Source of the DNA: Rubripirellula sp.
GTDB taxonomy: Bacteria > Planctomycetota > Planctomycetia > Pirellulales > Pirellulaceae
DNA: 64,000 nucleotides
NCBI GenBank assembly: GCA_965216875.1
Contig: OZ244207.1
Location: 3,104,001 to 3,168,000 of the forward strand
Direction: 5' to 3'
The position numbers were made by a program, and so were the translations under genes. Below, piece by piece: positions 15,554-44,684 of this stretch (within the stretch, counting starts at the first letter, position 1; each line of letters begins with the position of its first letter). Under the pieces are notes generated by a model, which was given only the letters and a program-made list of their open reading frames with translations, ran no database searches and was not told where the DNA came from.

Positions 15554-15667
15554 GGCGAAAGTCCTCGCTAAAAGGAGAGATCGAGCCTGTCGAATGAGCA
15601 GGTTTGAGGCGGGGTGATTTCCCACCATCCTAACAGAACCGATGCGCCCGTTCACGCTTGAGGCAAA

Positions 15668-16312: not shown

Positions 16313-16357
16313 CGCACCAGCAAGAGACCACCTACATTCCCCCGACGAGGAATCGAC

Positions 16358-17311
16358 ATGTCGCGCGAGACCAACGCCGAAAAGGTCGCACGTTTCCAGG
16401 AAGCTCTCGATCAATTTGTCGAGCGTCTCGCTGACGACCGCTATGTCTTGGCCGTCGTCCTGGTCGGTAGTTTAAGTGAAGAAACCGTTTGGGAACGTGA
16501 AGGGCTTGGACTTTGGATCATCGAAGCTGACGGCGTTAGTAAGCGTCTTCGCAGTGACGGTAAAGACGAACGCATCTTCCGGATTCTGGTCGAGGAAGGC
16601 ATCAACGTCTACGCCGAAGTGATTCCACGATCACGTTTCAAGCAGATGGTCGAGGGTTCGTCGCGAACTGCTTTCTCGTGCAACTTTTTTGCGCACCGAC
16701 AACTCATTCATTCGACCGACCCGTCGATCGATCAATGGTTCGAAACAGCCAAAACGGTCGCAACCAAAGACAAAGAAAAAGAACTGCTCACCTTTACGAC
16801 TTGGACGATTCACGCCCATCGCCACGCCAAACGTCGTCTGGAGATCAAAGAGGACCTTGACCTCGCGCGAGAAGAGGTTCTCGAGGCGGCTCACAGTGTT
16901 GCCCACACCGAGATCATCCGCGCCGGAGAGGTCTGGGAACGAGAAGTCATCTACCGCGCAATCGATTTGAAACCTGAGCTGTTTCAAACGATCTACCTTG
17001 ACGTTCTTTCCAAACGCAAAAGCAAGAAGGTCCTCGCTTTGGCGCTCGACGCGGTTGGCGATTACGTTGACCAACACTACCAAGAACACCTCAAGCCACT
17101 GCTCATGTTTCTCAAGTCCCAAAACCGAGTTGTCGGCCTCTCCGAGATCAGTGACCACTTTGCATTTTCGCAGCTCTATCCTTGGCACTTGGTTTCAGCC
17201 TGCGACTGGCTCGACGAGAAAGGGCATCTCGAAAAGCTTTCGTCGCCCTTCACGTTAACCAAACGCAGCAACGACGATGTCGAAGAACCTGCCTATTTCA
17301 TGGACGTCTGA
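16358..17311 (+). CDS. Nucleotidyltransferase-fold protein with C-terminal winged-helix-like region, catalytic acids apparently lost
   Basis: [12 protein letters not shown] motif, with the expected DxD reading EGLGL. C-terminal SEISDHF...[12 protein letters not shown]. Confidence 0.55.
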
Positions 17312-17368
17312 TCGCACGCCACGCGACTCGCACCCGCCTGTTTCGCAACCAAGATATCGAGCCAATTG

Positions 17369-20230
17369 ATGAGAACGACCATCGAAGTCCGGGGCGCCCG
17401 CGAGAACAACCTCCGCGACGTGGACGTCGAAATCCCCCGCGACAAACTGATTGTCGTCACCGGCGTGAGCGGCTCGGGCAAGTCTTCGCTTGCGTTTGAT
17501 ACGGTGTATGCAGAAGGACAACGCCGCCTGCTTGCATCCATGTCAACCTACGCAAAGCGTTTCATCGGGCAATTGAAAAAGCCCGATGTCGATTTCGTCA
17601 ATGGACTCTCTCCCGTCGTTTCCATCGACCAAAAAACGGTCGGTGCCAATCCGCGATCGACCGTCGGCACGATGACCGACATTTCAGACTACCTGCGAAT
17701 GCTGTTTGCGACCATGGGCACACCCCATTGCCCACGCTGTGAACAACCGATCGCAATCCGAACCGCCTACCAGATGGCCGAACGTTTGTTGTCACTGCCC
17801 AAGGGGACCGAGGTCGAAGTGCGGGCACCGGTCTACAAAATCTACGGTGAAGACTACGAATACCTGTTCGAGCAAATCCGAGTGAACGGCTACCGCCGAG
17901 CACGCATCAACGGCGAACCGGTCGACTTGGGCGACAACATTGAAATCGACGAGGACGAACAGCATGAGATCGAAGCAATTGTTGATTCGTTTGTGATTCA
18001 GCCAGGCATCGATCACCAACTTGTCACCTCTCTCGAGCATGGTTTGAAGCTGGGCGATGGGTTGATCAGTTTTCACGTCACCAAGCCCAAACGTGCCAGC
18101 GCGGCGATCAAGAAGTTCTACGATGGTTTTGGCTGCAGCAAACATCGGCTCGTCGCGGGGGAAATGAATCAAGCTCAATTCACTTTTAATGATCCCTCGG
18201 GCGCGTGTCCCACTTGCGCCGGAATCGGCACGGCGATGCGTGTGCACCCTAAATTGCTGGTTCCCGATCCCACGCGATCGCTCAGTGAAGGTGCGTTCGT
18301 GAAAGCGGCGATGAACAACAACCGCGATAGCTGGGGCGGCCGTTTGCTTCACAGCCTCTCGGCGCACTACGGCTTCAGCCTTGATGCCCCGTTCGAATCG
18401 CTCGCCCAAGAACATGTCGACATCCTGCTTTATGGCACCAAAGGTGAAAAGTTCAAGGTCGTCCTGCCGCCGAAGGCAAAGCAGGGCAAACAGCACGCCG
18501 GGAAAGAAATCAAGTTCAACGGCATCGTGAACCAGCTGGAGCATCACTATCACTGGTACCGCAAACAGGGCACGTCGAGCGCCGGCATGGAAGACTACCT
18601 CAAGAAGGTCATGGTCGAATACGATTGCCCAGAATGTGGCGGCGCCCGACTCAAACGCTCTCGGCGGCTCGTCAACGTGAACGACCAAAGCCTGTACCAA
18701 ATCGGTGAAATGCATTTGGTCGAACTGCTGCGATACCTCAAGACGATCAAGCCAAAAGCGAAGCACAAAGCCGTCGCACAAACCATTCTGAAAGAAGTGA
18801 CGACGCGTCTCGAACTACTGATCGCGATCGGGTTGGACTACCTCAATCTCAATCGCGGATCGTCGACGCTCTCGGGTGGCGAATCGCAACGGATTCGCTT
18901 GTCATCTCAGATCGGATCGGGATTGATGGGGATGCTTTACGTCTTGGACGAACCGAGTATCGGCTTGCATCCGAAAGACAACGTCAAGATGATCGACACC
19001 CTCAAACGGCTGCGCGACCTTGGCAACACGGTGATTGTGGTCGAACACGATTCGGACACCATCCAGGCGGCGGACCACATCGTCGAAATCGGCCCCGGCC
19101 CGGGCGTTCACGGAGGACAAGTCGTCGTCGACGGACCGCTCAAAACCATACTGAAGGACAAAACCTCAACGACTGGCGATTATCTGAGCGGGCGGAGGTC
19201 GATCGGTGTGCCGGCGCAGCGTCGGCCATCGTGCGGAGAATTCATTAGCGTCCTTGGCGCCCGGCACAACAATCTCAAGAACGTCGATGTCGACATTCCC
19301 TTGCGACAATTCGTCTGCGTGACCGGCGCATCGGGCTCCGGCAAGAGCTCGCTCGTCCACGAGGTGATTCAAAAGAAACTGGTCAGTCTGCTGCACGATA
19401 GCCGTGTCCTTTCGGGCGCGCATGACGAGTTGACCGGTGACCAATACGTTTCGGACGTCATCAACATCGATCAGGCACCGATCGGTCGCTCATCCCGATC
19501 CAACCCAGCCACCTACATCGGAATCTACGATGCGATCCGCAAGCTGTTCGCAGAAACCGAAGAATCAAAACGGCGTGGGTTCACAGCGTCCACATTCAGC
19601 TTCAACGTCAAAGGTGGTCGCTGCGAAGAGTGTTCGGGCGAAGGCACCATCACCACGCAACTGTCGTTCATGCCCGACGTCGAGGTGACATGCCCGACCT
19701 GCAAAGGTGCTCGCTACGACTCCGACACACTCGAAGTCGAATACCGCGGCAAGAATATCGCAGACATTCTCGAGATGTCGATCGAAGAAGGTGTCGAGTT
19801 CTTTGCCGAGCAAAAAACGATTGCTCGGAAGATTGGGACAATGAATGAGCTTGGCCTCGGATACCTGACACTTGGACATGCATCCACCATCCTTTCGGGC
19901 GGTGAAGCACAACGCGTCAAACTCGCTGCCGAATTGGGCAAACTCAAACGAGGGAAACACAACCTCTACATCTTGGATGAACCAACGACGGGCCTGCATT
20001 TCGCTGACATCGACCGTTTGCTGGACAGCCTCAATCGGTTGGTCGACAATGGGCACAGCGTGGTCGTGATCGAGCACAACTTGGATGTCATCAAGACAGC
20101 CGACTTCGTGATCGACCTCGGTCCCGAAGGTGGGCACAAAGGGGGCGAGCTGATCGTTGCCGGCACACCAGAAGAAGTCGCGGCGTGCAAGAAATCGCAT
20201 ACCGGGCGTTTCCTGGCCGAATACGTTTGA
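17369..20230 (+). CDS. uvrA: Excinuclease ABC subunit A homolog
   Basis: GARENNL, two Walker A motifs ([18 protein letters not shown]), LSGGESQR and [13 protein letters not shown] and LDEPT, Zn-finger CxxC pairs, RSNPATY. Confidence 0.95.
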
Positions 20231-31244: not shown

Positions 31245-31493
31245 TTGGCGACTCCCCGATTCGCGGCAATGGAAAAGCGTCACGTAGCCGCGACGAAACG
31301 TAATCCAATCCGCGACTCACTCTCTTATTTGACTCTATGCATTGTCGCGTGTGTGGCCAAATGGAAGGCCGGCGAAATCGCTGCTCGAGCGAGGCGTTTG
31401 AACTCGGTTGCATGACGCTTGCCCCCAATTCGAGTTCGTGATTCTCGACGCATGGGTCGGCAACAGGACCGCAGAATTGGGGGATTCGCGCAA

Positions 31494-31504
31494 TGTGCTA
31501 TAAT
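31494..31504 (+). promoter_or_regulatory. Extended -10 promoter element
   Basis: TGTGCTATAAT matches TRTGnTATAAT, about 45 bp upstream of the ATG at 31550. Confidence 0.55.
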
Positions 31505-31549
31505 GAGTTGGCCGAGTTCCCTCCATCGTTTTCAAACGAGACTCTTCAG

Positions 31550-32494
31550 ATGATTCGATTCCGTCATGTCGCCAGCGTCGGTTTACTGATCATGTTTGGC
31601 GCATCGTGGCTATTGGCTGACGAAAAGCGTGCGCCCGCCCCGAAATTCAACGACGCGCAACTCGACGGCATCTTTTTTGAAGATCTCGATGCTGCATTTC
31701 GCGGCAACGCCAAACCTTCGTTGTCAGCGATTCGGTCCAGTGCGGCCGCCACGACGGTTGCGGCAACGACCTCGAAAGCAGCGACCAATGAATCAGCAAC
31801 AAACGGTGTTTGGACGAAGCTGATCACACCCGCTTCGATCGAAGACGAAATCAAACGGCTCAAGCTCGAGTTCGACGGGCTGATCACCACGCCTGGTGCA
31901 TTCAACAGCGGCGGCTACATCGAAGCTCGCGTCGACCTCACCGCGCTGGCCATGATGTTCGCCGTGGTCCAAGAACATGACGGGGAAGTCCGCTGGAAGA
32001 AACAGGCCCCCGCCGCGCGAGACCTGTTGGCGAGAACAGCCTTCAATTGCAAAGCGGGATCGACCCAGGTTTACAACGAAGCCAAACAACGCAAAGGCGA
32101 CCTGCAAGATCTGATCTCAGGTGGCGGCATCTCGGCTCGCGATGTCGAAGAGGAAAACGATTGGGGCATGATCGTCGACCGCTCGCCGTTGATGGAGTAT
32201 GCCGAACGCCTGATCGAATCGCTTGAAGATCACAGCCGTGACACCAACACGGTCAAGGCGAACCTCGATGAAGTTCGTCGCGAGGCCGAATCACTTTCGG
32301 TGTTTGGGGAAGTGCTCACGCGTGAAGGGCTCGACGAAGCTGACAACGAAGACTATGTCAAACTTAGCCTTCACATGGTCGAAGCGTCCAAAGGTGTCTC
32401 AGCAGCATTGACGCGAAACGACATCGACGCGGTTCGCAAAGAAGTTGCCAACATTCGCCAACGCTGCGACACCTGTCACAACGAGTTCCGCTAG
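31550..32494 (+). CDS. Exported helical cytochrome c (class II / c'-like, C-terminal heme)
   Basis: Signal peptide, helical body, terminal CDTCHNEFR. Confidence 0.8.
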   Translation: MIRFRHVASVGLLIMFGASWLLADEKRAPAPKFNDAQLDGIFFEDLDAAFRGNAKPSLSAIRSSAAATTVAATTSKAATNESATNGVWTKLITPASIEDEIKRLKLEFDGLITTPGAFNSGGYIEARVDLTALAMMFAVVQEHDGEVRWKKQAPAARDLLARTAFNCKAGSTQVYNEAKQRKGDLQDLISGGGISARDVEEENDWGMIVDRSPLMEYAERLIESLEDHSRDTNTVKANLDEVRREAESLSVFGEVLTREGLDEADNEDYVKLSLHMVEASKGVSAALTRNDIDAVRKEVANIRQRCDTCHNEFR

Positions 32495-32572: not shown

Positions 32573-35026
32573 TCAACGGCTGACCAATTGCTTGAGCTGG
32601 TCACCGGTCATTCGGTGCGCAGCATCATGCGGGCAAGCGTGCACGCAGCTTGGCCCACCGGCGTCGCGGCACAAATCGCAGGTTGTCGCCCGCTGTTGAA
32701 CCACAGCGCGACCACCCGAGTCTTTGCTCTTGAAACCGTGCATGTTGATGTTGCCGTAGGGGCATTGGTTGGCGCACAACCCGCAACCAATGCAATAGTC
32801 TTCGATTTCGATCTCTTTTGAATCACCATCGCGGTGAATGGCGTCCACAGGACATCCGACCAGACAAAGTGGGTCAAGACACGACCGGCAACTACTTGCG
32901 ACCAGAAACTTGTCGAACCGGAGTCCTTCGCGAATCAATCGCGTCACTCCATCCTGATGGGCGTCCGCGCACGCCTTGGTGCATTCGTCGCAACGGGTAC
33001 AGCGTTCCAAGTCGAGCACAAGCAGGCTTTGCGCCATGTACAACCCTTGCTCGAGGAAGCTGTCGGCATCGATGGCCTGCAATCGCGACTCGGCCTCGCG
33101 ATCACTCTTCAACAACTTCTTCGCATTATCGAGCAACGGCTTGCGTATCTGCGGGTACCGTTCAAGCAACTCCCGAAAATCATTGCCGTCGATTCGGTAG
33201 AGCTCGACGTGGTCGAGTGCCGAACAGGTCGCCGTCCGCCGACCGCGATTCGCCTCGCCCAAGACATCTTCGTTCAACTCATCGGTCAAACCACTGAGCA
33301 ATCCGATTTCCCCAAACCCGCTGCCTGGGCCCAGGTAGTTCAAAACACGTTCATCGCGCCCGTATTTCTGCGTCACCTTTACCGACCCCAGTTTGTTGAC
33401 GTAATAGGCGTCGGCAAGGTCGCCCTGTTCAAAGATCGGTTGCAGGGGATCGACCAAGACATAGGAAGCTCGATCAGCCAGAAAGGCTGCGGCGTCCTCC
33501 TTCATCTGCTGGTCAAGTGATTCGAACAGTGGCAGATTGCCAAGCTGGCCCTTCAGCGCGCGTTCGCGGTAAAGCTTGTCAAGGATCTCGCGGCTGACTT
33601 GATTGCGTTGCAACATGTACAGCACGTTGCGGCGAATCTCGAGCACGTGTGACTCTTTGGTGGCCCTCACCGTGGCCGAGCGAACACCACGATTCATACA
33701 GGTCATTTCGCCAAGGATCACGTCGTCCTTGTTTCTCAAAATCCGGTTACCTGGTTCGTAGGCGATTTCTCCCACGTCGCCAAGCGTTGGCTTTCGACTA
33801 CTCCGCGACGTTTCTCTGACGGTATCAATGCGTCCAAAGAGTCGTCCCAGCAGACCGCCTGAACGCCGGTTTTTCAGACTGCCGGTCTCGACGTTGAAAT
33901 CGATCTCAAATTCACCATCGAGGATGATGAAAGCGGTGGCACCGTATTCGCCTTGCCGGCAAAGTTCCTGGCCCGGTTTGAGCATCCTCCGGACAACCGC
34001 AGCACCGTTGAATTGCAAAAACTTGTAGGGAATGTCCTTGAACAAATCGTATTTGATCAATTCATCAGCAGTAACAATGTCGCCATCTTTGCGTTCGTCC
34101 TTTAACTCCTTACGAACGCGATCCACCTGAGTCTCGATGAAGTCCTTTTGGAACTCCAAGGCGCCCGTTGGGCAACTAACGGCACATTCACCACACGAAA
34201 CACAAGTGCTTTCCTCCATCGAGTTGTTCAGGTCAAACACGATGCGAGAATCGTAGCCCTTGCCACCACGCCCAATGACGTTGTTGCCCTTGATCCAGTT
34301 GCAACCACGTTGGCAACGACCGCACAGAATGCATTGGTCATGATCAACGTGGATCATATGACTCGATTCATCTTGCCCACGAGTCACCGGCAAAGGACTG
34401 AACCGCTTGGGATCTGCGTCCAACCGCTCGGCAACTTTCACCAGTTCATTGCCCGGCGTCACCGTTGCCTGATCGGGACCATGGTCGGCAATCAGCAGTT
34501 CGACCACGGTACGACTTGCATTCTTGACCCGACCCGCGGCAGCTTCGTCGCTACTGTTGATCGTGTGCACGACCATGCCGTCTTTGACGGCTTGTTTGCA
34601 CGAGGGGACCAGCTTCTTGCGAATCGCGCCACGACTCTCTTCGACCAACTCCACCACACAGACTCGGCAGACGCCGACAGGTGGCAAATGTTCGCGATGA
34701 CAAAGCGCTGGAATCGGGTGCTGCTCGCCCGGTTTCGTGACGAACGCCTTGTACGCTGCGTCATAGATCGTGGTTGGCCGCGGAATCGGTTTCCCGTCGG
34801 CATCTTGCTTGATATTGCCCTGGGAATCGCACTCGGGCACCGCTTGGTTGACGACGACTTGAACACCATCAATCACCAGCGTGACCGTTTTCTCCAACTC
34901 ATCCGCGGTCGCTTTTTCGACGCGAATCAGTTGTCCATCGACGTCACGAGCGAACAGACCTTCGTCTTCTGGAAGGACGGAATAGTCGATATCGAAATTG
35001 ATCGCATCATCAGGGACGTTACTCAT
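32573..35026 (-). CDS. Fe-S protein: NuoG/HoxU-like N-terminus, two cNMP-binding domains, four-cluster ferredoxin C-terminus
   Basis: IPALC...CRVC...PSC (2Fe-2S); CILCGRCQRGC and CVSCGECAVSCP; GEMTC...RSAT and FGEIGLL...RTAT; CTRCDECTKAC, CRSCLDPLCLVGCP, CIGCGLCANQCP and CDLC...CVHACP. Start set at MSNVPD. Confidence 0.9.
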   Translation of the reverse strand: MSNVPDDAINFDIDYSVLPEDEGLFARDVDGQLIRVEKATADELEKTVTLVIDGVQVVVNQAVPECDSQGNIKQDADGKPIPRPTTIYDAAYKAFVTKPGEQHPIPALCHREHLPPVGVCRVCVVELVEESRGAIRKKLVPSCKQAVKDGMVVHTINSSDEAAAGRVKNASRTVVELLIADHGPDQATVTPGNELVKVAERLDADPKRFSPLPVTRGQDESSHMIHVDHDQCILCGRCQRGCNWIKGNNVIGRGGKGYDSRIVFDLNNSMEESTCVSCGECAVSCPTGALEFQKDFIETQVDRVRKELKDERKDGDIVTADELIKYDLFKDIPYKFLQFNGAAVVRRMLKPGQELCRQGEYGATAFIILDGEFEIDFNVETGSLKNRRSGGLLGRLFGRIDTVRETSRSSRKPTLGDVGEIAYEPGNRILRNKDDVILGEMTCMNRGVRSATVRATKESHVLEIRRNVLYMLQRNQVSREILDKLYRERALKGQLGNLPLFESLDQQMKEDAAAFLADRASYVLVDPLQPIFEQGDLADAYYVNKLGSVKVTQKYGRDERVLNYLGPGSGFGEIGLLSGLTDELNEDVLGEANRGRRTATCSALDHVELYRIDGNDFRELLERYPQIRKPLLDNAKKLLKSDREAESRLQAIDADSFLEQGLYMAQSLLVLDLERCTRCDECTKACADAHQDGVTRLIREGLRFDKFLVASSCRSCLDPLCLVGCPVDAIHRDGDSKEIEIEDYCIGCGLCANQCPYGNINMHGFKSKDSGGRAVVQQRATTCDLCRDAGGPSCVHACPHDAAHRMTGDQLKQLVSR

Positions 35027-35031
35027 TGATT

Positions 35032-36840
35032 TCACGCTCCTGTCGCTTTTGTGGTGCAAGCTTGGCGGGCAAGTTCCGGAAAGAACTTTAGGAAGCTGCT
35101 AAAGGGATTGCTCGCCACCGCGCCGAGGCCGCAGATGCTCGTACCGACCATCACTTGGCTCAACTGATCCGCGGTGCCGCCAAAGCCATCGAGTTCCTCG
35201 ACCGTGACATCGCCAGCCAACAAACGCTCGGCCATTTCCGTGATCTTTTGCGATCCGATTCGGCAGGGCACACACTTGCCGCACGATTCGTTGCGATAAA
35301 AGCGACTGTTTGCAACCGCTTCGGCAAGCACGTCGCAGCCCTCGCCGTAAACCACTATCCCGGCACCGACCATGTAACCGACGGCTCGCGAAACATTGAT
35401 GTCCAAGGGTAGATCACGAACTGAGATTTCCGTCACGCCCTCGGGGACGTTCTTTTCGACAAAGCGCCGACTCAAGTATTTGACCGGGATCTTATTTGGA
35501 AGCAGCCCACCGGAAGGCCCACTCAATGCGACCGCCACGATCTCCTTTCCCCCTGCCATGCCGCCACAATGATCGTCGATCAGTTGACCAAGCGTGATCC
35601 CTGTCTCCACTTCGTAAACACCTGGTTTTTCCAGGTCGCCGCTGATGGAAAAAAGGCGTTTGCCCTTCATCTTTGGCTCGCTGCCTTTGGCAAGCATCGC
35701 GTCATGCTTCCCCTGTTCGGCGAACCATTTGCCTCCATCGCGAAGAATCGAAGGAGCCCAGGCAAAGGTCTCGACGTTCGACAGAAGGGTTGGCAAATTG
35801 TTCAATCCGTTGGTCATCAGCTCGGGTGGGCGGATGCGTGGCTCGGCCCGCTTGTCTTCCATCGCTTCAATCAAAGCCGTTTGTTCGCCACAGATGTAGC
35901 CGCCGGGACTCTCGTAGACTTCGAGTTTGAATGATCGCCCGCTTCCAAAAATATTGGGTCCGCAGGCACCCAACTCCTCGGCGCGTTTGATCTCCTCGCG
36001 ACACTTCTCGATTTGTTCGGGGTATTCGTGTCGGACGTAGATCCATCCTTCGTCAGCGCCGGTGACGAGCGCGGCTAGAATCATGCCCTCGATGGTTGTA
36101 TGTGGCGCTGCGAGAAGAATATCGCGGTCCTTGAACGTCCCTGGCTCGCTCTCGTCGGCATTGCAAACGACGTACTTCTTGCCCGACTTCGATTGGGCTC
36201 GCAGGACATCGCCCCACTTTCGATAAGCGCGTCCACCAGCGCCACCCATTCCGAGCAGATTCGCGTACTCGAGCGCCGACAGGACGGTATCGGAGTCCAT
36301 GCCATCTTCGACAAACTTCTTGACCACTTCATAGGTAGCAGTGCCCTGGTAGGTGTCGAGTGCCCACTGCCCCACCTGTGTTTTCGCGTGTTCGGCGTCC
36401 GTATCATGAGCGGGCTCTTGTCCATCAAGCATCGCGGCGACCGCCTTCTGACAACGACCAACATCAGTCTCAGCCAGAAGACGTTCATGCTCGGTGACCC
36501 CTTCGGCATAAACCATGGCAGCAGGTGCCCGATCGCATCTGCCCAAACAAGAAACACCACAGACTTGAACTTGATCGCCGTAGTTCTCGGTGGCCCATTG
36601 CGTCAACTCTTCCGTCGCCTTCACACTTCCTTTCAAGTGACAACTCATGTCACGGCAAACGTGTACGGTCGCCTTGGGTGGTGGATCCGTGCGGAAATGA
36701 GGAAAAAACGAAACGAGCGCCTCCACACGATGCATTGGCACATCAAGCTGATCCGCGACCAGCTTCATGTCAGCTGAAGTGAGAAAACCGCCACGTTCTT
36801 TCTGGCGTTTCTTCAATGCAGGAATGATGACGAGACTCAT
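35032..36840 (-). CDS. NuoE-NuoF fusion flavoprotein (NAD(H)/FMN-binding diaphorase module)
   Basis: VCRDMSC...SCLGRCDRAP (thioredoxin-like 2Fe-2S); GMGGAG, CNADESEPGTFKDR, YICGEQTAL and ESCGKCVPCRIG...ICGLG (4Fe-4S). Confidence 0.92.
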   Translation of the reverse strand: MSLVIIPALKKRQKERGGFLTSADMKLVADQLDVPMHRVEALVSFFPHFRTDPPPKATVHVCRDMSCHLKGSVKATEELTQWATENYGDQVQVCGVSCLGRCDRAPAAMVYAEGVTEHERLLAETDVGRCQKAVAAMLDGQEPAHDTDAEHAKTQVGQWALDTYQGTATYEVVKKFVEDGMDSDTVLSALEYANLLGMGGAGGRAYRKWGDVLRAQSKSGKKYVVCNADESEPGTFKDRDILLAAPHTTIEGMILAALVTGADEGWIYVRHEYPEQIEKCREEIKRAEELGACGPNIFGSGRSFKLEVYESPGGYICGEQTALIEAMEDKRAEPRIRPPELMTNGLNNLPTLLSNVETFAWAPSILRDGGKWFAEQGKHDAMLAKGSEPKMKGKRLFSISGDLEKPGVYEVETGITLGQLIDDHCGGMAGGKEIVAVALSGPSGGLLPNKIPVKYLSRRFVEKNVPEGVTEISVRDLPLDINVSRAVGYMVGAGIVVYGEGCDVLAEAVANSRFYRNESCGKCVPCRIGSQKITEMAERLLAGDVTVEELDGFGGTADQLSQVMVGTSICGLGAVASNPFSSFLKFFPELARQACTTKATGA

Positions 36841-36865
36841 GGTGCGGTTTCGCGTCTTCTCTCAG

Positions 36866-38275
36866 CTAGGGTTTTAGGGCGTCGTTAAGGAAGGTCTTCA
36901 ACTGCGCGCCAATCGCGGGATCAAAACGACCTGGCGAGTTCACCCCCGAGTCAAATTGCAGCAGCGGTCGCGATTGATTCAAGAATCGCCTATACGGTTC
37001 ATCCTTTCCCGCGGAAAACTCACGCAGCGCGGCTTCGGCATCAAGGTAAAACACAGCAGCTTCATACCAATCACTCGGGGGAGGCGTTTGCTGTAAGCGG
37101 TCGAGCTCCACCTTTGCATCAGTGCCGCCGTTTTGAGCAATCGCAATCCCTTCGGCACGAACCGTATTGGCAAGCTTGATACCGCTGGCAGCCATCCGAT
37201 CGGCATCGACCGCATTGGGAGCAAGCGCTTTCAAGGTCGTCTCATTGAACTCTCGCTGACCAACGGTATGCCACGAATTCCAAATCGGCAGGCCGCTACT
37301 GACCTGCAAGGCTGACGGTTTGGCATCGGGCGGCAAACGGTACTGTTCCATCGACAACGACTGATGGCATGCAAAGCAATCGTAGTCGGCAAGTTCGGGC
37401 CACGGCACGTTGCCCCCCTTTGCGTAGTCTGCCGCGCGCTGAGCTGCAAGCTTGGCAGCAGCGGCAAGCGTGATCGCGCGACCAGCCTGTCGTACTTGGA
37501 CAGGCGACTTCGAAAACGCGAACGGGCCCTTATTCGGGCTCCAGTGCTTCGGCAACGCCTCGTTGTAGGTCCCCAGTTCGAACCGCAGCACGGGATGCCC
37601 CGCCGCAATCATGTCGTGATTCATATCGCGAATCAAACCGTCAGCATCCCGAGATCCGACGTGACACCGCACGCAACGCGAACTACGCCCGACGATCGTT
37701 TCCGTATCAAGCATTCCTACAGAAATCTTGAAATTGCTGTCTTTGCTGTGGGCGGCGATCGGGTCCGCATCATTCGAGGTTGCGAATCCTGGAAGGTAGT
37801 GCTGGTGCAGCCATTGGTCGGCGCGGCCGTGACACGATTGGCACGAAACACCGCCAGCAAGCTGCAACGAATCGATTCGTTCGCCGCTTGGTTGACAATC
37901 CAAGACCTGGGCCGTCGCGTGACAGCTCAAGCAACGACGCCGGAGCAGATTGTCGCGATCGAGCAGCCAGGCACCGTCACCCGCCGCTTGCTTCGCAGCG
38001 ATTTTCGGATCGAGCGCAAACACGATCTGTGTAGACAAGTCGCTGTAAAGGGTGATGCCGGCATTTGCATGAGGATCGCGGTCCGCCCAAACCGTCCAAG
38101 ACGATGCCCAACTTTCACCACGGCCGATCGCCCCACCATGGCAAGTCGATGCGGCACAACTCGCACGTTCGATAACGGAGGGCGAAACAATGTCGGTCGT
38201 CTGACTGCGAACGCGTGCCGGAAACACGATCGCAATGGCAACAGCGATCAACCAAACTCGACAAGATGTGTTCAT
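36866..38275 (-). CDS. Pentaheme cytochrome c, paralog A
   Basis: Signal peptide from MNTSCRVWL. Heme motifs CAASTCH, CLSCH, CQSCH, CVRCH, CFACH. ATGA overlap with the upstream gene. Confidence 0.88.
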   Translation of the reverse strand: MNTSCRVWLIAVAIAIVFPARVRSQTTDIVSPSVIERASCAASTCHGGAIGRGESWASSWTVWADRDPHANAGITLYSDLSTQIVFALDPKIAAKQAAGDGAWLLDRDNLLRRRCLSCHATAQVLDCQPSGERIDSLQLAGGVSCQSCHGRADQWLHQHYLPGFATSNDADPIAAHSKDSNFKISVGMLDTETIVGRSSRCVRCHVGSRDADGLIRDMNHDMIAAGHPVLRFELGTYNEALPKHWSPNKGPFAFSKSPVQVRQAGRAITLAAAAKLAAQRAADYAKGGNVPWPELADYDCFACHQSLSMEQYRLPPDAKPSALQVSSGLPIWNSWHTVGQREFNETTLKALAPNAVDADRMAASGIKLANTVRAEGIAIAQNGGTDAKVELDRLQQTPPPSDWYEAAVFYLDAEAALREFSAGKDEPYRRFLNQSRPLLQFDSGVNSPGRFDPAIGAQLKTFLNDALKP

Positions 38276-39753
38276 TGGTCCGCCCCCAAAGTCGTCGAGG
38301 GCGTGTTGTGATAGCGATGGCAAAGAACGCAGCGATCCGAAGCCCACTGGGTGTGTCCGCCAAAGGTCGCCGACTCGCTCGACGAAGCGGTTGTTCCAGC
38401 AGGGCGATGGCAACCAGTGCACGTCTCGATGCCGCCAATGGCAACCACAGTGTGATCCTTGGCGGTCAACTTCGGATCCGATTCCACCACCGCACCGTGG
38501 CAGTGCAGACAATCAACCTTCTGGTGCGAAGCATGATCGAATTGACCATTGGTTAACCAGCGCGAGGGGATCATCTTTCCGCGCAGTTTCGTCGCCGCGA
38601 TGGCTTTGTCGGTGGTGACATCATCAACGTGGCACTTGAAACACTGCTGCTGGAGGGTCGCAATCGCGGTTGATTTTTCAAAGGCGTCCAACTGCTCAAT
38701 CGTCAACGATCCCGATCGCTCGGCGCTCGTTCCGATCCCCGTTGGCCCCGAGCTCGGTTGTTCACGCTTCTTGATTGCGAGTCGCGCGTCCAGCCATTTA
38801 CCAACCTCATCCCAGGCAGCGGCGTGAGGAATTGAAGCGTTCTCGGCCGTTTGCCCAGCCGGGTTGAAATGGTGGCATGCCGAGCAATGCTGTTCGAAAT
38901 TGATCGGCGTCATGTAGCGGCCAGCCTTGTCGACGGCACCAATTTCCTCATCAGCCACTCCGCTCGACTGGTGGCAATCCTTGCATGCAAGTTGAACGAA
39001 TCCGTTTTCATTTGTCGCGTACCGTCCTTGAAACTCATCCGGCAATCGATCCGCTGTCATCGCAACCTTGCCAGCGGCACCATACGCGGATTGTCCCGGC
39101 AAGAGGTGTTGGGCATGATCGAACTTGATTCGCCCAGGATCACCGGCAAACAGCGAGGCAAATTCGCTGTGTCCCTGCTTGGAAAATGCGACGATGCTTT
39201 GACGTTTTTGGTCCTTGAGCACGGTCTGGCTCGGATCAAGACAAACCGAATCGATGCGACGATGGCAATCGACGCACCGCTCGTTTTGCACATCCGACAG
39301 GTCGAAGAGTCTTCCCTGGTGATCGGCATGGCAAAGGGCACAGTTTTCATCAGCCAATTTCCAATCACCCGCTAGCTGATGATTGTGGTGACCTGCGATC
39401 GGATGCTCACCGTTGTGACAATGCGTGCACTTCGAAAACGTCGCTGCGACCGACTTCTCGGCGGAAACATCAACATAGGGCGGCAACTTGAGTTCGCGGA
39501 TCGAATCGTTGGCAATCGGTACGAATGGCGTGTGACATGCTTCGCAGTTCGATTCGATCTCGGCGTGGCCCGCCGCCACCGGTCCGGGCATCGCAACGAT
39601 GCTGTTGGAATTTGAGTAGGCAAAGACGGCAATGCCAAACAGACAAGCCGTGATGGCCAACGCAACCTTCAGACGCGCCAGTGAGTCGCGCTGTCGAAAG
39701 TAGTCCAGCTCGATTCGCTGGGCTCGTTGCTTTCCGGTTTCACCCTGAGACAT
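38272..39753 (-). CDS. Membrane-anchored decaheme cytochrome c
   Basis: N-terminal TM and ten CxxCH motifs: CEACH, CTHCH, CALCH, CVDCH, CKDCH, CSACH, CFKCH, CLHCH, CTGCH, CVLCH. Confidence 0.92.
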   Translation of the reverse strand: MSQGETGKQRAQRIELDYFRQRDSLARLKVALAITACLFGIAVFAYSNSNSIVAMPGPVAAGHAEIESNCEACHTPFVPIANDSIRELKLPPYVDVSAEKSVAATFSKCTHCHNGEHPIAGHHNHQLAGDWKLADENCALCHADHQGRLFDLSDVQNERCVDCHRRIDSVCLDPSQTVLKDQKRQSIVAFSKQGHSEFASLFAGDPGRIKFDHAQHLLPGQSAYGAAGKVAMTADRLPDEFQGRYATNENGFVQLACKDCHQSSGVADEEIGAVDKAGRYMTPINFEQHCSACHHFNPAGQTAENASIPHAAAWDEVGKWLDARLAIKKREQPSSGPTGIGTSAERSGSLTIEQLDAFEKSTAIATLQQQCFKCHVDDVTTDKAIAATKLRGKMIPSRWLTNGQFDHASHQKVDCLHCHGAVVESDPKLTAKDHTVVAIGGIETCTGCHRPAGTTASSSESATFGGHTQWASDRCVLCHRYHNTPSTTLGADQ

Positions 39754-39760
39754 CGTGCTA

Positions 39761-40744
39761 TCACCAATACTTGAGGGCAGTGATGATATGTGCGATCAAC
39801 AATCCGGTGACGGCAACGGAAAGGCCGATGTGGATTGGCAACCATCCATGCAAAACTCGATGAACCGATTTTTGCGTGTCGAACTGGCGACGCTGGTGAC
39901 AAAGCTGTTCAAGCATGTCGATTGCCTCGGCGCTGGAGTCGGTGCAAGCCTCGCGCAAATTACGAAACCAATCGACCGCTTGCTGCGGTTGTGAAACGGG
40001 CGACTCGGCCTTCGCACCTTCCAATAAGTAAGGCTCGATTTCGTCAAAAGCGTCCCACAACGGCTTGGCATCTTCGGGGGACTTTTGCACGCGTCGTGAT
40101 TGAGCGCTACGACCAATCGTTCGACCAACGTTGCGTTGGGCGCCAATGATGACGGGCCCCGTCCCGACCAACTCTAGCTCAGGATTGATTTCTCCGGCAT
40201 CACTTGGGCGAGGCCCACAAACCGCAATCAACATCTGCCGAGCATCGCCCGCGGTCACCTGCGATACATGATCGATCTGGCCATGAATCGTCTCGGAGGG
40301 CAAATGCCGCAGCATCCAACGGGGAACAATATTCTGAACGATCCATCCATAGAGCCCACTGAGGATCGTTAACACAAAAAGAAACATGAGCGTATTGGGA
40401 AGCCAACCGCTCCAGACCAATCCCCAATGAGCAACCGCCAAGAAAAACGATGCAATCCCAAACCAGATATGTGCCGCCATCCAGTATTTCGCTGGACCAA
40501 ACATCTTGATCCTGCGGAACCACTTCTTGGGGCTCAGCAGCATCTCGAAAAAGATGATCAAACCGGCGGCAATCCCGCAGGACAGGCCTGCTGCGCTGCT
40601 TCCGCTAAGCGGATGCCCGGCCGAAATCGACGCTTTGACGTACCACCCCACCAGCACCAACGTGAGCACGCCCGCAGGGAGCGCCGTCCGAAAATGAAGC
40701 CGTGAAGATTGCGTCAACAGCACCGTAGCACCAACCAGTTGCAT
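39761..40744 (-). CDS. Polytopic membrane protein with four TM histidines, putative diheme cytochrome b
   Basis: WMAAHIWFG...VAHWG and WLPIHIGLS...IAHII, each His pair 13 residues apart, flanking a soluble insert. Confidence 0.7.
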   Translation of the reverse strand: MQLVGATVLLTQSSRLHFRTALPAGVLTLVLVGWYVKASISAGHPLSGSSAAGLSCGIAAGLIIFFEMLLSPKKWFRRIKMFGPAKYWMAAHIWFGIASFFLAVAHWGLVWSGWLPNTLMFLFVLTILSGLYGWIVQNIVPRWMLRHLPSETIHGQIDHVSQVTAGDARQMLIAVCGPRPSDAGEINPELELVGTGPVIIGAQRNVGRTIGRSAQSRRVQKSPEDAKPLWDAFDEIEPYLLEGAKAESPVSQPQQAVDWFRNLREACTDSSAEAIDMLEQLCHQRRQFDTQKSVHRVLHGWLPIHIGLSVAVTGLLIAHIITALKYW

Positions 40745-41151
40745 TCAGGTCCATTCCGGTGTCGCACAAGCCCGTGCCAGCCGGACACGTCGGAAGACCC
40801 CATGTTGCGATGCATTGATGGTACCACTTGAAGGAGCGCCCATGTTTAGTGAGTGAGGTCGTTCGAGTCAATTCGCCTCGACCGCCGACCATTGAATCCT
40901 TCACGAAACTCACAATCGCGATGGCGACAAGGCAGGTTCACGGCCTACAATCCTCATCGCAGCCTACAATCCTTATGGCAATCGCCGATTGCAGGTTCAC
41001 TATCGAGGGTTGCATTCACTCGGGCAGTGCCGAGACGCTTGTCAAAACACGCCTCAAAGTTGACCGCGCAAATGATGACGATACCGACTATTGTGGGGCA
41101 ATCTCGTCCACCTCAATTCAGTCGACTTACCAAAACACGCCGAGTGGTGTG

Positions 41152-42987
41152 ATGCTTGCCTTGCCAGCCAATCTGTATCGCTGTACAGGCGTCTTAGGCG
41201 TTGTCGCCTTGGTTTGTTTCGTTGCTCCCGCTATTGGTGGGATTTCGACTGCATCGGGCCAACAACTTCTACCTGTCCCCTCGCCAGAACCAGACGCAGC
41301 GCAGTCTGATCCGTTCACTGACGATCGACCAACCGATACCTCTACCAGCGGCCATCAAGGTCTCGATCATCTCCACGGCACATTGCTGCGAAACGATTTT
41401 TCGCTCAAGGGCGCTCAGTCCTGCGCCGTCTCGTCTTGCCATGGTGGTCCGCGACCGGGAATTGCCCAACCGACCGCGCGTCGCGGCTCAGAATTCCAGC
41501 TCTGGCTCGAAAACGACCCACACGCACGATCGTGGCGAACCTTTTGCGGCGACGAAAGCGTTCAAATGATGCGTCGGTTGAGAATCATCGACCAAGACAA
41601 CGTCGTGCTCGATCGGGCAGGTTTCGACAATTGCTTGGCTTGCCACAACACGGCCAAACGCTATGACGAGCCGAGAACCACCGGCAACCTTCGCGAAGGG
41701 GTCGGATGCGAAGCCTGTCATGGTCCCGCTGAACAATGGGAATCCTCGCACGTCCAATACAACTGGTCGCGAGAATCGGCACACGAGCAAGGGTTCGTCA
41801 ATAACGACGACCTCTTCACGCGAGCCCGCATGTGCGCCTCCTGTCACGTCGGTGACCGAGACCGCGACATGAACCACGACATCATCGCCGCTGGCCACCC
41901 GACGTTGCGCTATGAATTGGCGACCTACCACAGTTGGCAACCGAAACACTGGCGAGACGCCGAAGCCGATAACAAAGAACGCTACGAGGCTCAACTTTGG
42001 CTTGCCGGACAAGTGGCATCGGCCGACGCGTCGCTGTCGCTTCTTGAAACACGTGCTCGGCGCGGACACTCCGCGAGCCAGTGGCCAGAGTTTGCCGCGT
42101 ATGACTGCGCATCCTGCCACCACAATCTTGGCCTTGGCAACGCACGCGGCAGCGAGCTTCCTGGGCAACGACAACGACCCGCAACCGCAATCTATTCACA
42201 ATGGAATGATTCCGGATTGAGATGGCTGTTGAAACACCGCGTCACAAGCGGCAAAGCAACCGAAAACGACCATCGACTTCTCGACGCGCTGGTATCGGTA
42301 CAAACGGCTATGGAACAGCCGCCGCGGCCCAACGCAGACTCGGTTGCCGACGCCTCAAAGCACGCTCGAAAAGAACTTGCCGCTTGGTTTGCGGCCGAGG
42401 GCGGTGGGGAGCGCCAGCGATTTGACAGCGACCGACTTGGAATGCTCGTGGCATCAGCAGCAAGCGACCCCGATACATTCTTAACGTGGGAGTCAGCGGC
42501 GCAGTTCTACCTGGCGTCAATCGCGGCGCGAGAAAGCTGGCCCGGCGGTATCGACGGACCGCTTCGAGAAACGGCGGACCAATTGCAATACGGTCTCCAG
42601 TACCCACAGATGATCGACATTAGCCGTTATGCGAAGCGAGCGTCCGCCAAAGGTCCGCAGCTTAGCCGACACGAGATCGCGCGGCTGTCTATCCAACTTG
42701 CAAGGTTCCTCGGTCCCGTCGCTGAAAACGCAGCCGATCACCCGCCGTCCGATAGCCGAGATCCGGCCAATGTTCGCGACAAACTCGATGCGTTGCTCGA
42801 GCGGATTCGCAAACAACAGCAGACAGAGCGCAAGAACCGCGGCGAACAAACACCACCCGCGGTGAAACCGAGCGACAACGCCCCCAAAGAGCCGCCTGAA
42901 AAACCACGGCAATCGGTCGAGGACCTTCGCAAAGCGCTCGAATCGTTACAATCTGACTCTACCGACGACGGCAACAATCAACCTTGA
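41152..42987 (+). CDS. Pentaheme cytochrome c, paralog B
   Basis: Signal-like N-terminus. Heme motifs CAVSSCH, CLACH, CEACH, CASCH, CASCH. Start trimmed from 40828. Confidence 0.88.
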   Translation: MLALPANLYRCTGVLGVVALVCFVAPAIGGISTASGQQLLPVPSPEPDAAQSDPFTDDRPTDTSTSGHQGLDHLHGTLLRNDFSLKGAQSCAVSSCHGGPRPGIAQPTARRGSEFQLWLENDPHARSWRTFCGDESVQMMRRLRIIDQDNVVLDRAGFDNCLACHNTAKRYDEPRTTGNLREGVGCEACHGPAEQWESSHVQYNWSRESAHEQGFVNNDDLFTRARMCASCHVGDRDRDMNHDIIAAGHPTLRYELATYHSWQPKHWRDAEADNKERYEAQLWLAGQVASADASLSLLETRARRGHSASQWPEFAAYDCASCHHNLGLGNARGSELPGQRQRPATAIYSQWNDSGLRWLLKHRVTSGKATENDHRLLDALVSVQTAMEQPPRPNADSVADASKHARKELAAWFAAEGGGERQRFDSDRLGMLVASAASDPDTFLTWESAAQFYLASIAARESWPGGIDGPLRETADQLQYGLQYPQMIDISRYAKRASAKGPQLSRHEIARLSIQLARFLGPVAENAADHPPSDSRDPANVRDKLDALLERIRKQQQTERKNRGEQTPPAVKPSDNAPKEPPEKPRQSVEDLRKALESLQSDSTDDGNNQP

Positions 42988-44684
42988 ACGTAAGATTCGC
43001 CGAGATGTCACTCTGCCTCTCCAAACGCACCGTCATCTACCGCAACTTGATTCTTTGGATTGCAAGTACTGCGGCTTTCGTCTGTGCGCCTAACGTCGTC
43101 GCGCAGGACGCGTCGAACGACCGAGCCTATGACGCTGTCTTCCAAACCTGGCGAGACCACGCAGGGGTCCAGGCCTGCGACCGCTGCCACAATGGGCAGA
43201 GCGACTTTGCCAAAATCGATACCAGCTACAGCCGCCAGGACGAGCTGAAGTTCTGGATCACGAAAGACAAACATGCGATTGCTCGTCGCCGCGTCGAACC
43301 ACTCTCTAAAGACGAAGTACTCGAGCAGGCAACAAAACTTGCCAATCAATATGGTGATGCTCAAGTCGTTTCGGGCTGGCTCGGCGCGAGCAACGTTTTG
43401 AGCAAACGCATCAAAGAAAAGTTGCGCTACAACGACGATCAATTCCGTGACAATTGCTTGACCTGCCATGGCGGGTATCGACACGACGTCGAATCGGACA
43501 AGGCAGAGTTTGCTGCGGATCAACCAGGCATTTCATGCAACTATTGCCACCAGGTCGGAACGACCAACCAGTGGGTCCTTGATCACAACGCCACCACGCC
43601 CGAGGCCAAAGCCAAATGGCGAGGAAGCACTGCCAATCAAAAAGAGTCTTTGGGGATGCGAGATTTGGTGACGACCTCCCGTCAGGCCAGTCTCTGTTTC
43701 GATTGCCACGTTGGAAATCGAAAACAAAACCAATTCGTCACTCACGAAATGTATGCTGCCGGGCATCCGCCATTGCCTTCGATTGAAGTGCAAACCTTCT
43801 GTGAGCAGATGCCTCAACATTGGCGATCCTTGTCGACCGTCCATGACGAATTGCCCGATGGCGAAAAGGATTCGTACTTTCGGTTGAACCTTCCGGGCGT
43901 TGATGCGCCCGACGACACCTATTGGAACACACGAAAACTCTTGGTCGGTGCGTTGGCGGCTCGTGCAAAAACGCTGCAACTTGTCATCGATTCGGCACAA
44001 TCGAATCAATGGGCTGACTATTCGCTGTACGACTGCGCCGCTTGCCACCACGAACTGAAAACCGAAAGCCACCGGCAACAACGTGGCTATCCGGCTGCTC
44101 CCGGTCGGCCTCGTCAACATGAGTGGCCAGACGCGTTGTTCCACATTGCGCTTTTCCTGGCCCAAGACGAACCAAACATCATGGAACTCGAGCGTACACT
44201 CGCAGCCCGATTCGGCGCTCAACCCTTTGGCCGAGCCGAAGACGTGTCGGCAGCGGCAGCGAATTTGAAAGCTGCAATCGATCGCGCCATCGAAAAGGCC
44301 GAATCAACTACGGTCGATTCCGATGTCGCTCTTCGAGTTCTTTCCGGCCTGGCACAGACTCCAACGGAAAAACTTTTCGCCTACGATTCGGCTCGCCAAG
44401 TCGTCTGGGCAATGCGAGTCGTTATCGCTGAACTTGAATCCAAAGAGGATGAGCTTTCACCCGAACTCAAACAGGTGCAAACCCTCGTGAAAGCACTGGA
44501 CCAGCCCACCACGACCGCTGGCAACACGGGAATCGCCGCAGTTCTGCCGGCCGGGCGCACGGCATTCATCTATCCCGATAGTTTGCGGAATGATCTGAAG
44601 CGTCGTGCGAACTTTGATTCGGACGAACTCGAAAAACGCCTCCGCGAAATCAACGAGCTCTTGGTTGACGTGATCAACCAATAA
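42984..44684 (+). CDS. Pentaheme cytochrome c, paralog C
   Basis: Signal peptide. Heme motifs CDRCH, CLTCH, CNYCH, CFDCH, CAACH. Shared HEMYAAGHP and PQHW motifs. Confidence 0.88.
   Translation: MNVRFAEMSLCLSKRTVIYRNLILWIASTAAFVCAPNVVAQDASNDRAYDAVFQTWRDHAGVQACDRCHNGQSDFAKIDTSYSRQDELKFWITKDKHAIARRRVEPLSKDEVLEQATKLANQYGDAQVVSGWLGASNVLSKRIKEKLRYNDDQFRDNCLTCHGGYRHDVESDKAEFAADQPGISCNYCHQVGTTNQWVLDHNATTPEAKAKWRGSTANQKESLGMRDLVTTSRQASLCFDCHVGNRKQNQFVTHEMYAAGHPPLPSIEVQTFCEQMPQHWRSLSTVHDELPDGEKDSYFRLNLPGVDAPDDTYWNTRKLLVGALAARAKTLQLVIDSAQSNQWADYSLYDCAACHHELKTESHRQQRGYPAAPGRPRQHEWPDALFHIALFLAQDEPNIMELERTLAARFGAQPFGRAEDVSAAAANLKAAIDRAIEKAESTTVDSDVALRVLSGLAQTPTEKLFAYDSARQVVWAMRVVIAELESKEDELSPELKQVQTLVKALDQPTTTAGNTGIAAVLPAGRTAFIYPDSLRNDLKRRANFDSDELEKRLREINELLVDVINQ

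Follow-up and report, generated by a model that had tools for sequence, protein, structure and literature searches.

The stretch of Rubripirellula sp. DNA analysed here (assembly GCA_965216875.1, contig OZ244207.1, positions 3,104,001 to 3,168,000; 64,000 nucleotides, hereafter the window) carries at 32573..44684 seven genes for iron-sulfur, membrane and multiheme proteins. A preliminary description had read them as a candidate for an undescribed, cyclic-nucleotide-gated electron conduit from NAD(H) to the periplasm. All seven open reading frames are intact and lie where it placed them, and the tight spacing of the five minus-strand genes (gaps of 7, -4, 25 and 5 base pairs, bp) was reproduced using ATG starts at 39753, 38275, 36840 and 35026. 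The genes are as follows (aa, amino acids; cNMP, cyclic nucleotide monophosphate; FMN, flavin mononucleotide):

32573..35026, minus strand: PtdE-like Fe-S/cNMP protein, 817 aa (Pfam/NCBIfam, Cys inventory, AlphaFold, Foldseek)
35032..36840, minus strand: NuoE-NuoF fusion, 602 aa, with [2Fe-2S], FMN and [4Fe-4S] (Pfam, residue signature, genome search)
36866..38275, minus strand: pentaheme 1, 469 aa, with a signal peptide, a PtdD relative (motifs, fold, conserved His)
38272..39753, minus strand: decaheme, 493 aa, a PtdG relative held in the membrane by a single N-terminal anchor, which a basic cytoplasmic motif precedes
39761..40723, minus strand: five-helix membrane protein, a PtdF relative of clade II (start GTG 40723 set by homologs; frame open from ATG 40744)
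41152..42987, plus strand: pentaheme 2, 611 aa when started at ATG 41152 (the open frame reaches back to 40828), a paralog of pentaheme 1
43005..44684, plus strand: pentaheme 3, 559 aa, five CxxCH, a paralog of pentaheme 1

The start of pentaheme 2 was moved from 40828 to what is probably ATG 41152, which gives a signal-peptide-like start. The paralogy of the pentahemes is confirmed, pentaheme 2 sharing 31% identity with pentaheme 1 and pentaheme 3 being a paralog as well. The count of 25 heme-c motifs also holds (ten CxxCH in the decaheme, five CxxCH in 43005-44684, and, in pentahemes 1 and 2, four CxxCH and one CX4CH apiece), provided that the two CX4CH motifs are included; CX4CH is nearly invariant across the aligned pentaheme homologs (n=110). 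The remaining three proteins are also as first described: a membrane protein with four His (H92, H106, H305 and H319, invariant in 83/83 clade II rows), a NuoE-F fusion, and an Fe-S/cNMP protein in which a NuoG/HoxU-like N-terminus is followed by two cNMP domains and a ferredoxin domain with 16 Cys. A Pfam scan of 46 window proteins (13 + 33, 9 of the 33 matching nothing) found no hydrogenase, formate dehydrogenase (FDH), Mo enzyme, complex I arm or porin family. The earlier statement to this effect is thus correct for the window, but for porins it fails genome-wide, a putative barrel being encoded 0.9 Mb away.

The core of this locus already has a name. The available text of one report describes ptdABCDEFG as encoding a pentaheme with a beta-sandwich (A), a porin (B), a flavin adenine dinucleotide (FAD)/NAD(P) oxidoreductase (C), a tetraheme (D), a cNMP/4Fe-4S protein (E), a ferric-reductase-like membrane protein (F) and a decaheme (G); the function is unknown, the genes are reported in Planctomycetes, Nitrospirales and other lithotrophs, and a nitrogen-cycle role was raised (bioRxiv 10.1101/2023.11.21.568154). 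We recognised canonical ptd operons in relatives (loci L026 and L027/L040) by order and domains. The Ptd references used here are the L027/L040 proteins, identified by gene order, Pfam and the PtdA match to structure 5ZE8, and are not the ptd authors' own sequences. The L040 pentaheme matches this cytochrome c552 structure, as the available text states for PtdA (bioRxiv 10.1101/2023.11.21.568154).

Compared with these references, the window Fe-S/cNMP protein matches PtdE (L027) at E 4e-61 with 30% identity over 563 aa, the membrane protein matches PtdF at a pairwise E of 2e-6, and the three pentahemes match PtdD at E 1e-5 to 3e-10, with five hemes each against the four of PtdD. The decaheme is weakly similar to PtdG (E 1e-4) and shorter than the canonical protein, and it holds a fixed position after the membrane gene. 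No window protein matches the PtdB or PtdC references in pairwise comparison; PtdA and PtdB are not at the locus, and the window pentahemes are all-helical at the C-terminus, not beta-sandwich. Elsewhere in the genome, canonical ptdEFG, ptdAB and ptdD are scattered over C1:1739042-1744018, C1:3378086-3382043 (the ptdAB site) and C1:6376895-6377905, and a genome search returned no close ptdC (best match 25% identity). Since ptdEFG is named in print (bioRxiv 10.1101/2023.11.21.568154, in the text available), the system cannot be called undescribed; by these sequence comparisons, the seven genes are a conserved variant of the named ptd set, that is, of a described but uncharacterised family.

How is this variant distributed? 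A membrane-protein profile matched 83 of 301 genomes of the phylum, 46 of them at full length, and the membrane gene has 1,049 representatives at E 1e-30. Neighbourhoods were collected for 40 of the 46 full-length phylum loci and 18 from nearer relatives, as stretches of ~19 kb, some extended, in which absence from the locus does not equal absence from the genome. A quick IQ-TREE analysis of 57 membrane proteins (midpoint root, Shimodaira–Hasegawa-like approximate likelihood ratio test, SH-aLRT, only; L024 and L033, which have no membrane gene, omitted) separated two clades, both with SH-aLRT 99. Clade I (27 rows) has PtdC at 16/27 loci, NuoEF at 0/27, and the E and G proteins at 27/27. Clade II (30 rows, including the window) has PtdC at 0/30, NuoEF at 10/30, E at 26/30 and G at 29/30, with five-heme D proteins, an LVIVD decaheme at 14/30 loci and a 600-700-aa unknown protein at 12/30. 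The NuoEF carriers of clade II comprise an 8-row group (support 96) and a separate pair, L055/L058.

The core is tightly kept. In 56 of 57 loci the membrane gene is followed by the decaheme, and neighbouring parts are fused in some relatives (membrane::multiheme in L081; decaheme::pentaheme in L105, L116, L150, L183 and L194). The full seven-gene layout recurs in L021, L022, L103, L191, L192 and L193, and NuoEF is present in 11 of the 18 family genomes fetched. Of 582 metagenome loci the 80 best were retained, a set biased to the window subclade by the query; among the 41 that reach at least 10 kb, 32 carry NuoEF, 28 an extended E, 40 the decaheme and 27 a D protein. Proteins of L165 and L179 carry Acidobacteriota labels, and therefore the NuoEF variant occurs in at least two phyla. 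Conservation of the gene neighbourhood, proposed earlier as a check, was thus found in Planctomycetota relatives, in metagenomes and in Acidobacteriota-labelled loci. What is new here is this second clade, in which a non-bifurcating NuoEF together with a NuoG-like extension replaces PtdC, along with a probable outer pair and an apparently all-bis-His heme set. A literature search, including the accessible parts of papers on Tenderiales, peat and Verrucomicrobia, found no description of a NuoEF-fed clade or of an LVIVD/barrel link; the ptd authors' genome tables may include clade II loci.

What would feed electrons into such a core? Where an input partner is present it is an NAD(P)-flavoprotein, of different folds: PtdC (FAD/NAD-binding plus 2Fe-2S), NuoEF, or a fused pyridine-nucleotide oxidoreductase. 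The window NuoF part has TFK and GYICG at the non-bifurcating signature positions, and its chain ends after the N3 cluster with no extra ferredoxin domain. Its SLBB loop reads SGPSG, one residue off the bifurcating motif GGPSG. In the available text of PMC7311640, non-bifurcating NuoF is recognised by T/S-x-K/S/A near the NADH site, a Tyr near FMN, no GGPSG and no extra Fe-S domains. On this signature, NuoEF is a non-bifurcating NuoF-type diaphorase. A genome search showed it to be the sole NuoF-family gene. We rejected the idea that it is the N-module of complex I, because the 49-kDa subunit (PF00346) was not found in this 99%-complete genome, while the control matched in 11/14. An N-module of a Hox hydrogenase was rejected as well: the single NiFe hydrogenase of the genome has its own small, FAD-type and Fe-S genes alongside, judged by order, size and motifs. 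NuoEF is therefore left without another obvious client.

Several related observations are worth recording. The NiFe hydrogenase cluster (G000:C1:3019917-3024601) is preceded by a 155-aa gene that, as read from its sequence, resembles a stand-alone cNMP-binding domain. At L111:16717-18150 and L154:16937-18526, a gene of the pyridine-nucleotide disulphide oxidoreductase family, whose start we take to be soluble-transhydrogenase-like, directly follows the Fe-S/cNMP gene. Pentose-phosphate-like genes, read from their N-termini, flank L140 and L154, a hint at NAD(P)H balancing. A gene of the FMN-binding glutamate-synthase family comes after a three-cNMP E variant at L030:640-2169 and L031:4965-6620, possibly as an alternative input module.

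The second half of the inner module is the 817-aa protein. It consists of a NuoG/FdhA-type N-terminus ([2Fe-2S] + 2x[4Fe-4S]), two cNMP domains and a C-terminal 4x[4Fe-4S] domain, and its 32 Cys include 4 for the [2Fe-2S], 8 for the two [4Fe-4S] and 16 for the four further [4Fe-4S]. The His-ligated (His/3Cys) cluster of NuoG and HydA is lost, no Cys following His182 in the column profile and the Cys list. The AlphaFold model has a predicted template modelling score (pTM) of 0.78, with the C-terminal Fe-S domain less confident, and Foldseek finds resemblance to HydA and FDH alpha and to the tandem cyclic-nucleotide-binding (CNB) domains of PKG and PKA. A similar NuoE-F fusion (39% identity) lies ahead of a true FDH alpha in L033, and in E the cluster-binding stretch decays from FDH-like (L033, L055) to Cys-free (window); this fusion and the graded decay suggest that the inner module arose from an NAD-linked FDH by replacement of its Mo domain.

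The cNMP domains have an intact phosphate-binding cassette. In domain 1 the pocket residues G439, E440 and R449 are present in 102/102 proteins, and in domain 2 R597 is present in 92/102. The pocket Arg is followed by Ser or Thr, a residue that we take to go with cGMP use in PKG and cyclic-nucleotide-gated (CNG) channels, and two class III cyclase domains are encoded in the genome. The domains had been placed in the middle of the wire. Their pockets are indeed conserved, but they are central in the sequence only, the NuoG-like domain having been added in front of them. In ptd E proteins without this extension they are simply N-terminal, and therefore, on present sequence evidence, they are a regulatory appendage of the Fe-S subunit and not carriers. 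Because the N-terminal arrangement is that of most relatives, the mid-sequence position alone is no proof of gating. That cNMP binding alters activity is a view towards which the conserved pockets incline us slightly.

FHA domains are added to the cNMP domains in the E proteins of L052, L059, L070, L075 and L076, which suggests phospho-threonine control too. Could the whole chain then be a redox sensor, reporting the outside redox state through cNMP/FHA domains as part of a signalling output, with little net flux? The up to three cNMP domains in relatives' E proteins and the FHA domains in 5 of the E proteins scanned would suit this idea. Yet no E protein scanned has a kinase, cyclase or DNA-binding output domain, and a dedicated diaphorase with 25 to 35 hemes would presumably be costly for a sensor; we regard the sensor reading as very unlikely.

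In the membrane, the five-segment protein carries pairs of His 14 residues apart on helices 3 and 5, and these four His and the Trp/Gly positions are invariant across both clades (14/14 rows). It is predicted to be a di-heme b protein of ferric-reductase-like type. Among the 83 membrane proteins, Pfam matches below the cut-off were to Ferric_reduct in 19 (best E 3e-4) and to Ni_hydr_CYTB in 15; sequence searches gave no solved structural relative for the membrane protein, the decaheme, the LVIVD protein or the barrel. The weak Ni_hydr_CYTB/cytochrome b561 matches would fit a different arrangement, a quinone-linked branch in which NuoEF and E act, without pumping, as an NAD(P)H:quinone oxidoreductase, and quinol feeds the c-type cytochromes. 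The failure to find a complex I 49-kDa subunit in the genome favours this branch as well, and pairs of a 4x[4Fe-4S] protein and a cytochrome b in FdnHI-type enzymes are quinone-reactive. Such reductases, however, need no multiheme partner, whereas here the decaheme follows the membrane gene almost without exception and is fused to it in L081; moreover, we take His on helices 3 and 5 to be the layout of the ferric-reductase family, for which Pfam support is weak. On balance, we consider a quinone-linked branch unlikely.

Distant homologs of the membrane protein occur in other settings. A third group (L201, L202, L203, L205 and L206) has the membrane protein and a cNMP/Fe-S protein flanked by 15- and 17/18-heme cytochromes, with a barrel near in L201 and L206 and an LVIVD protein near in L202. 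In L204, L211, L212 and L213 distant homologs lie beside 16- to 26-heme cytochromes, and no Fe-S partner was seen within the stretch. Finally, L086 (G000:C1:6493784-6510765) resembles a nitrate-assimilation cluster, with an NMT1-type transporter, a Mo enzyme, a nitrite/sulfite reductase and a globin. At its head a pyridine-nucleotide oxidoreductase is joined in one chain to a distant membrane-domain homolog; a decaheme comes next, and a class III cyclase lies ~5 kb off.

The heme proteins look like carriers. In the decaheme ten His outside the motifs are invariant (19/19 homologs), matching the ten hemes. The model of pentaheme 1 (predicted local distance difference test, pLDDT, 87) has a cytochrome c554 domain (Z 8.6, root mean square deviation (rmsd) 4.0, 152 aligned; profile E 2.4e-7) and a helical C-terminal domain carrying heme 5; Foldseek at E 0.001 returned no match for the pentaheme. 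Five extra His are conserved for the five hemes in an alignment of 110 homologs, and the presence of His220 goes with that of heme 5 in all but one of the 111 D-family proteins that could be scored (98 with both, 12 with neither, 1 discordant; 142 collected). As the distal His counts equal the heme counts, the hemes are read as bis-His carriers: all 25 look bis-His, to judge from conservation, and thus carriers rather than catalysts.

A terminal periplasmic or surface enzyme would be the contrary case, for example an LVIVD decaheme or c554-like pentaheme reducing NO, peroxide or a metal complex. The c554 fold of the pentahemes points that way, as does the helical domain, whose nearest structural matches are iron-binding proteins of the imelysin/EfeO type (5 of the 7 leading rows; best Z 9.5, rmsd 3.8, 178 aligned), although Z below ~13 for helical bundles may mean a common arrangement only. 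The nitrogen-cycle role raised for ptd in the available text (bioRxiv 10.1101/2023.11.21.568154) is also in its favour. Every pentaheme heme, however, has a conserved distal His candidate, and the LVIVD protein has no solved relative. HAO, NrfA and OcwA are absent from the structural match lists, an absence that is no exclusion. Altogether, a terminal enzyme appears decidedly unlikely.

Where would electrons leave the cell? The first account ended the wire in the periplasm, without a porin; this part was not borne out, as the same genome encodes, 0.9 Mb from the window cluster, a pair that is probably an outer module:

G000:C1:2248495-2254934 (L085:5496-11935): 1,460-aa LVIVD-repeat decaheme and 677-aa putative beta-barrel

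In the congener G001, the barrel, the LVIVD decaheme and pentaheme 3 are contiguous (72% and 84% identity). Four loci (L108, L126, L165 and L179) hold full sets including the outer pair. Across the family, the barrel gene and the clade II membrane gene are found in the identical 22 of 121 genomes, from 17 of 96 genera, with the membrane gene called at E 1e-58 or better (next best 8e-26), a cut-off set at the score gap after viewing the list. In 7 of these 22 genomes the two genes lie within ~27 kb on one contig. The 677-aa protein itself has a signal peptide, and its last residue is aromatic in 10/10 members. The alternating pattern of its family scores 18, where shuffles give 10.0 +/- 2.5 and attain that score in 2 of 300 cases, Pfam Alginate_exp matches 3 of the 10 members (best E 0.017), and an Atlas alginate-export cluster was returned for it (0.95, rank 29). 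The protein is thus likely an outer-membrane barrel. We discarded the possibility that it is a PtdB relative, as profiles gave no similarity (probability 0.1). In clade II, a different cytochrome-barrel pair thus seems to stand in for PtdAB, and a link between the inner-membrane conduit and the barrel/LVIVD pair is, in our view, fairly probable.

Some results pull the other way for this outer pair: (i) the signs that the 677-aa protein is a barrel are indirect; (ii) the alternating-pattern test is flat for PtdB (7 vs 5.7), and a cruder single-sequence barrel test showed nothing for either protein; (iii) since related genomes have genes in common, the 22 of 22 co-occurrences do not equal 22 independent events; and (iv) among ten further clade II genomes, three of which are among the 121 or close kin and so not independent, the barrel was found in eight and not in G116 (87% complete) or G126 (93%).

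A fixed core with exchangeable NAD(P)-flavoprotein inputs, fusions between neighbours and hemes that all look like carriers argue for a conduit from NAD(P)H to the outside. We propose that the locus encodes a trans-envelope electron conduit built of modules and belonging to clade II of the ptd family, in which NAD(P)H electrons are exported with the cNMP domains as a valve, a proposal in which our confidence is evenly balanced. Electrons of NAD(P)H would enter at the FMN and [4Fe-4S] of NuoEF, pass to the [2Fe-2S] and two [4Fe-4S] of the NuoG-like domain, and then by way of the 4x[4Fe-4S] domain to the two b hemes of the membrane protein. From there the membrane-anchored decaheme would hand them to the soluble pentahemes, and these to the distant LVIVD decaheme, held by the outer-membrane beta-barrel, and on to an outside acceptor. 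Of these parts, a conduit at the inner membrane is likely and, granted that, outward flow is likely too. Such flow would be pulled by the membrane potential and spend it, consistent with reductant export (redox overflow) or surface reduction and not with an energy-conserving chain. An unregulated conduit would drain NAD(P)H, which is a likely reason for cNMP domains, and FHA domains in some relatives, to act as a valve on the Fe-S subunit. In its most complete form, the proposal would be a quinone-independent wire of nine proteins with FMN, 9 Fe-S clusters, 2 b hemes and 35 c hemes, running from NAD(P)H through both membranes to the surface and gated directly by cAMP/cGMP, which would amount to extracellular electron transfer under second-messenger control in Planctomycetota and Acidobacteriota; as a whole this is doubtful. 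Of the continuous wire first proposed, the wide co-occurrence of the genes, the fitting cofactor inventory and the fusions of neighbouring parts in relatives are on record; cofactor binding, subunit contacts, direction, outer-membrane link and gating are what we infer from genes, motifs, folds and conservation.

Why outward? The membrane potential assists electrons on their way out, and bringing them in to NAD(P)+ takes a very reducing donor; export is therefore favoured. The converse, electron import, would have an outside or periplasmic donor reduce NAD(P)+ by way of this chain. Each of the parts is a reversible carrier, and the available text places ptd in Nitrospirales and other lithotrophs (bioRxiv 10.1101/2023.11.21.568154). 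Nevertheless, import would run against the potential and end at about -320 mV, and NuoF has the non-bifurcating signature with no extra ferredoxin domain. We give import the smallest chance of the alternatives considered here.

Three further points count against the export conduit. First, at 20 of the 30 clade II loci neither NuoEF nor PtdC lies in the stretch examined, and the electron input there is therefore unexplained. Second, the nucleotide loop of the window subclade reads GGAGGRAY and GEQ where the other NuoEF loci have GGAGFPTG and GEE, so that nucleotide use could differ or be weak; that GEQ marks a shift towards NADPH is our guess from complex I mutagenesis, for which a literature search gave no source. 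Third, reactivity towards quinones is frequent among di-heme b proteins.

The ptd family is common yet without known function, and the NuoEF variant supplies it with an input that is defined and can be assayed, the oxidation of NAD(P)H at FMN. The comparison of clades reveals a core that stays fixed while the inner and outer modules are exchangeable. If the proposal is true, reducing power can reach the surface, bypassing the quinone pool and under direct cyclic-nucleotide control, in many non-model Planctomycetota and Acidobacteriota. We know of no electron-transfer chain under such control, and a literature search found none. Because the cultured genera Rubripirellula, Novipirellula, Rhodopirellula and Roseiconus carry close homologs, the conduit is testable.

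Upstream of the operon lies one element, offered as a lead only:

40842..40871, minus strand: promoter-like element TTGAC-N17-TAAACAT facing the five-gene operon

The pattern was drawn after the fact from four upstream regions; it occurs once in the whole genome and at the same position in 3 of 24 related loci tested. Scans for sigma-70 promoters and terminators gave no excess over shuffles, and the best CRP/FNR boxes in 10 upstream regions had 2-4 mismatches. An 8-mer, ACGATTGT, is common to window 40724-41151 and the upstream regions of L021, L022, L191 and L192, and may be a regulator site; in places it forms a 9-bp direct repeat, and the window copy has one mismatch. Two adjoining genes were dropped as parts of the system, a cytochrome c'-like monoheme gene (31493-32494) and a thiamine pyrophosphate (TPP) decarboxylase gene, since among labelled loci each adjoins the cluster only in the congener G001. 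The former, on the plus strand and convergent with the operon, looks secreted and has its cytochrome c'-like monoheme motif at the C-terminus. In G001 (84% complete), three genes are broken across two frames each, those for pentaheme 2, cytochrome c' and TPP decarboxylase (L022:3836-5699, 14429-17495), which may be an assembly error.

How does the proposed conduit compare with known systems? Members of the NADPH oxidase/ferric reductase superfamily pass electrons from an NAD(P)H flavoprotein through two b hemes on helices 3 and 5 to an outside acceptor, some with regulatory ligand-binding domains. The window chain would likewise join an NAD(P)H flavoprotein, predicted b hemes on helices 3 and 5 and an outside acceptor, but with a five-helix protein, separate NuoEF and Fe-S subunits and an extension of c-type cytochromes. 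Like NuoEFG, HoxEFU and FdsGBA, the window set has a NuoE-F fusion and an alpha-subunit N-terminus, with a fold nearest HydA and FDH alpha; unlike them, it has two cNMP and 4x[4Fe-4S] domains in place of the H-cluster or Mo domain, has lost the His-ligated cluster and has no catalytic partner gene. Cytochrome c554 has an open heme where the pentahemes carry an extra His. The pentahemes share the fold and the motif spacing of the first four hemes with c554 of Nitrosomonas (PDB 1bvb), and add heme 5, a helical C-terminal domain and the conserved His after heme 4.

MtrCAB-type conduits are usually modelled as drawing on the quinone pool, whereas the window input is a pyridine-nucleotide module. 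Likeness to them lies in a putative barrel gene beside a large multiheme and in periplasmic multihemes (available texts of PMC5615132 and bioRxiv 10.64898/2026.05.27.727921). For the porin-cytochrome candidates of the same two sources, the available texts mention no cNMP or Nuo part; the barrel/LVIVD pair, compared by text only, may overlap one of their clusters. The nearest known system is the ptd operon, with which the window locus shares homologs of PtdE, PtdF and PtdG, PtdD-family proteins and, from the available text, occurrence in Planctomycetes. The two PtdE clusters (4Fe-4S) of the published description, as far as its text is available (bioRxiv 10.1101/2023.11.21.568154), contrast with the 16 Cys for four in the window domain. 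The window membrane protein belongs to a separate PtdF clade (SH-aLRT 99), NuoEF and a NuoG-like extension on E stand in place of PtdC, three pentahemes in place of the PtdD tetraheme, and, it seems, an LVIVD decaheme and an unrelated barrel in place of PtdA and PtdB.

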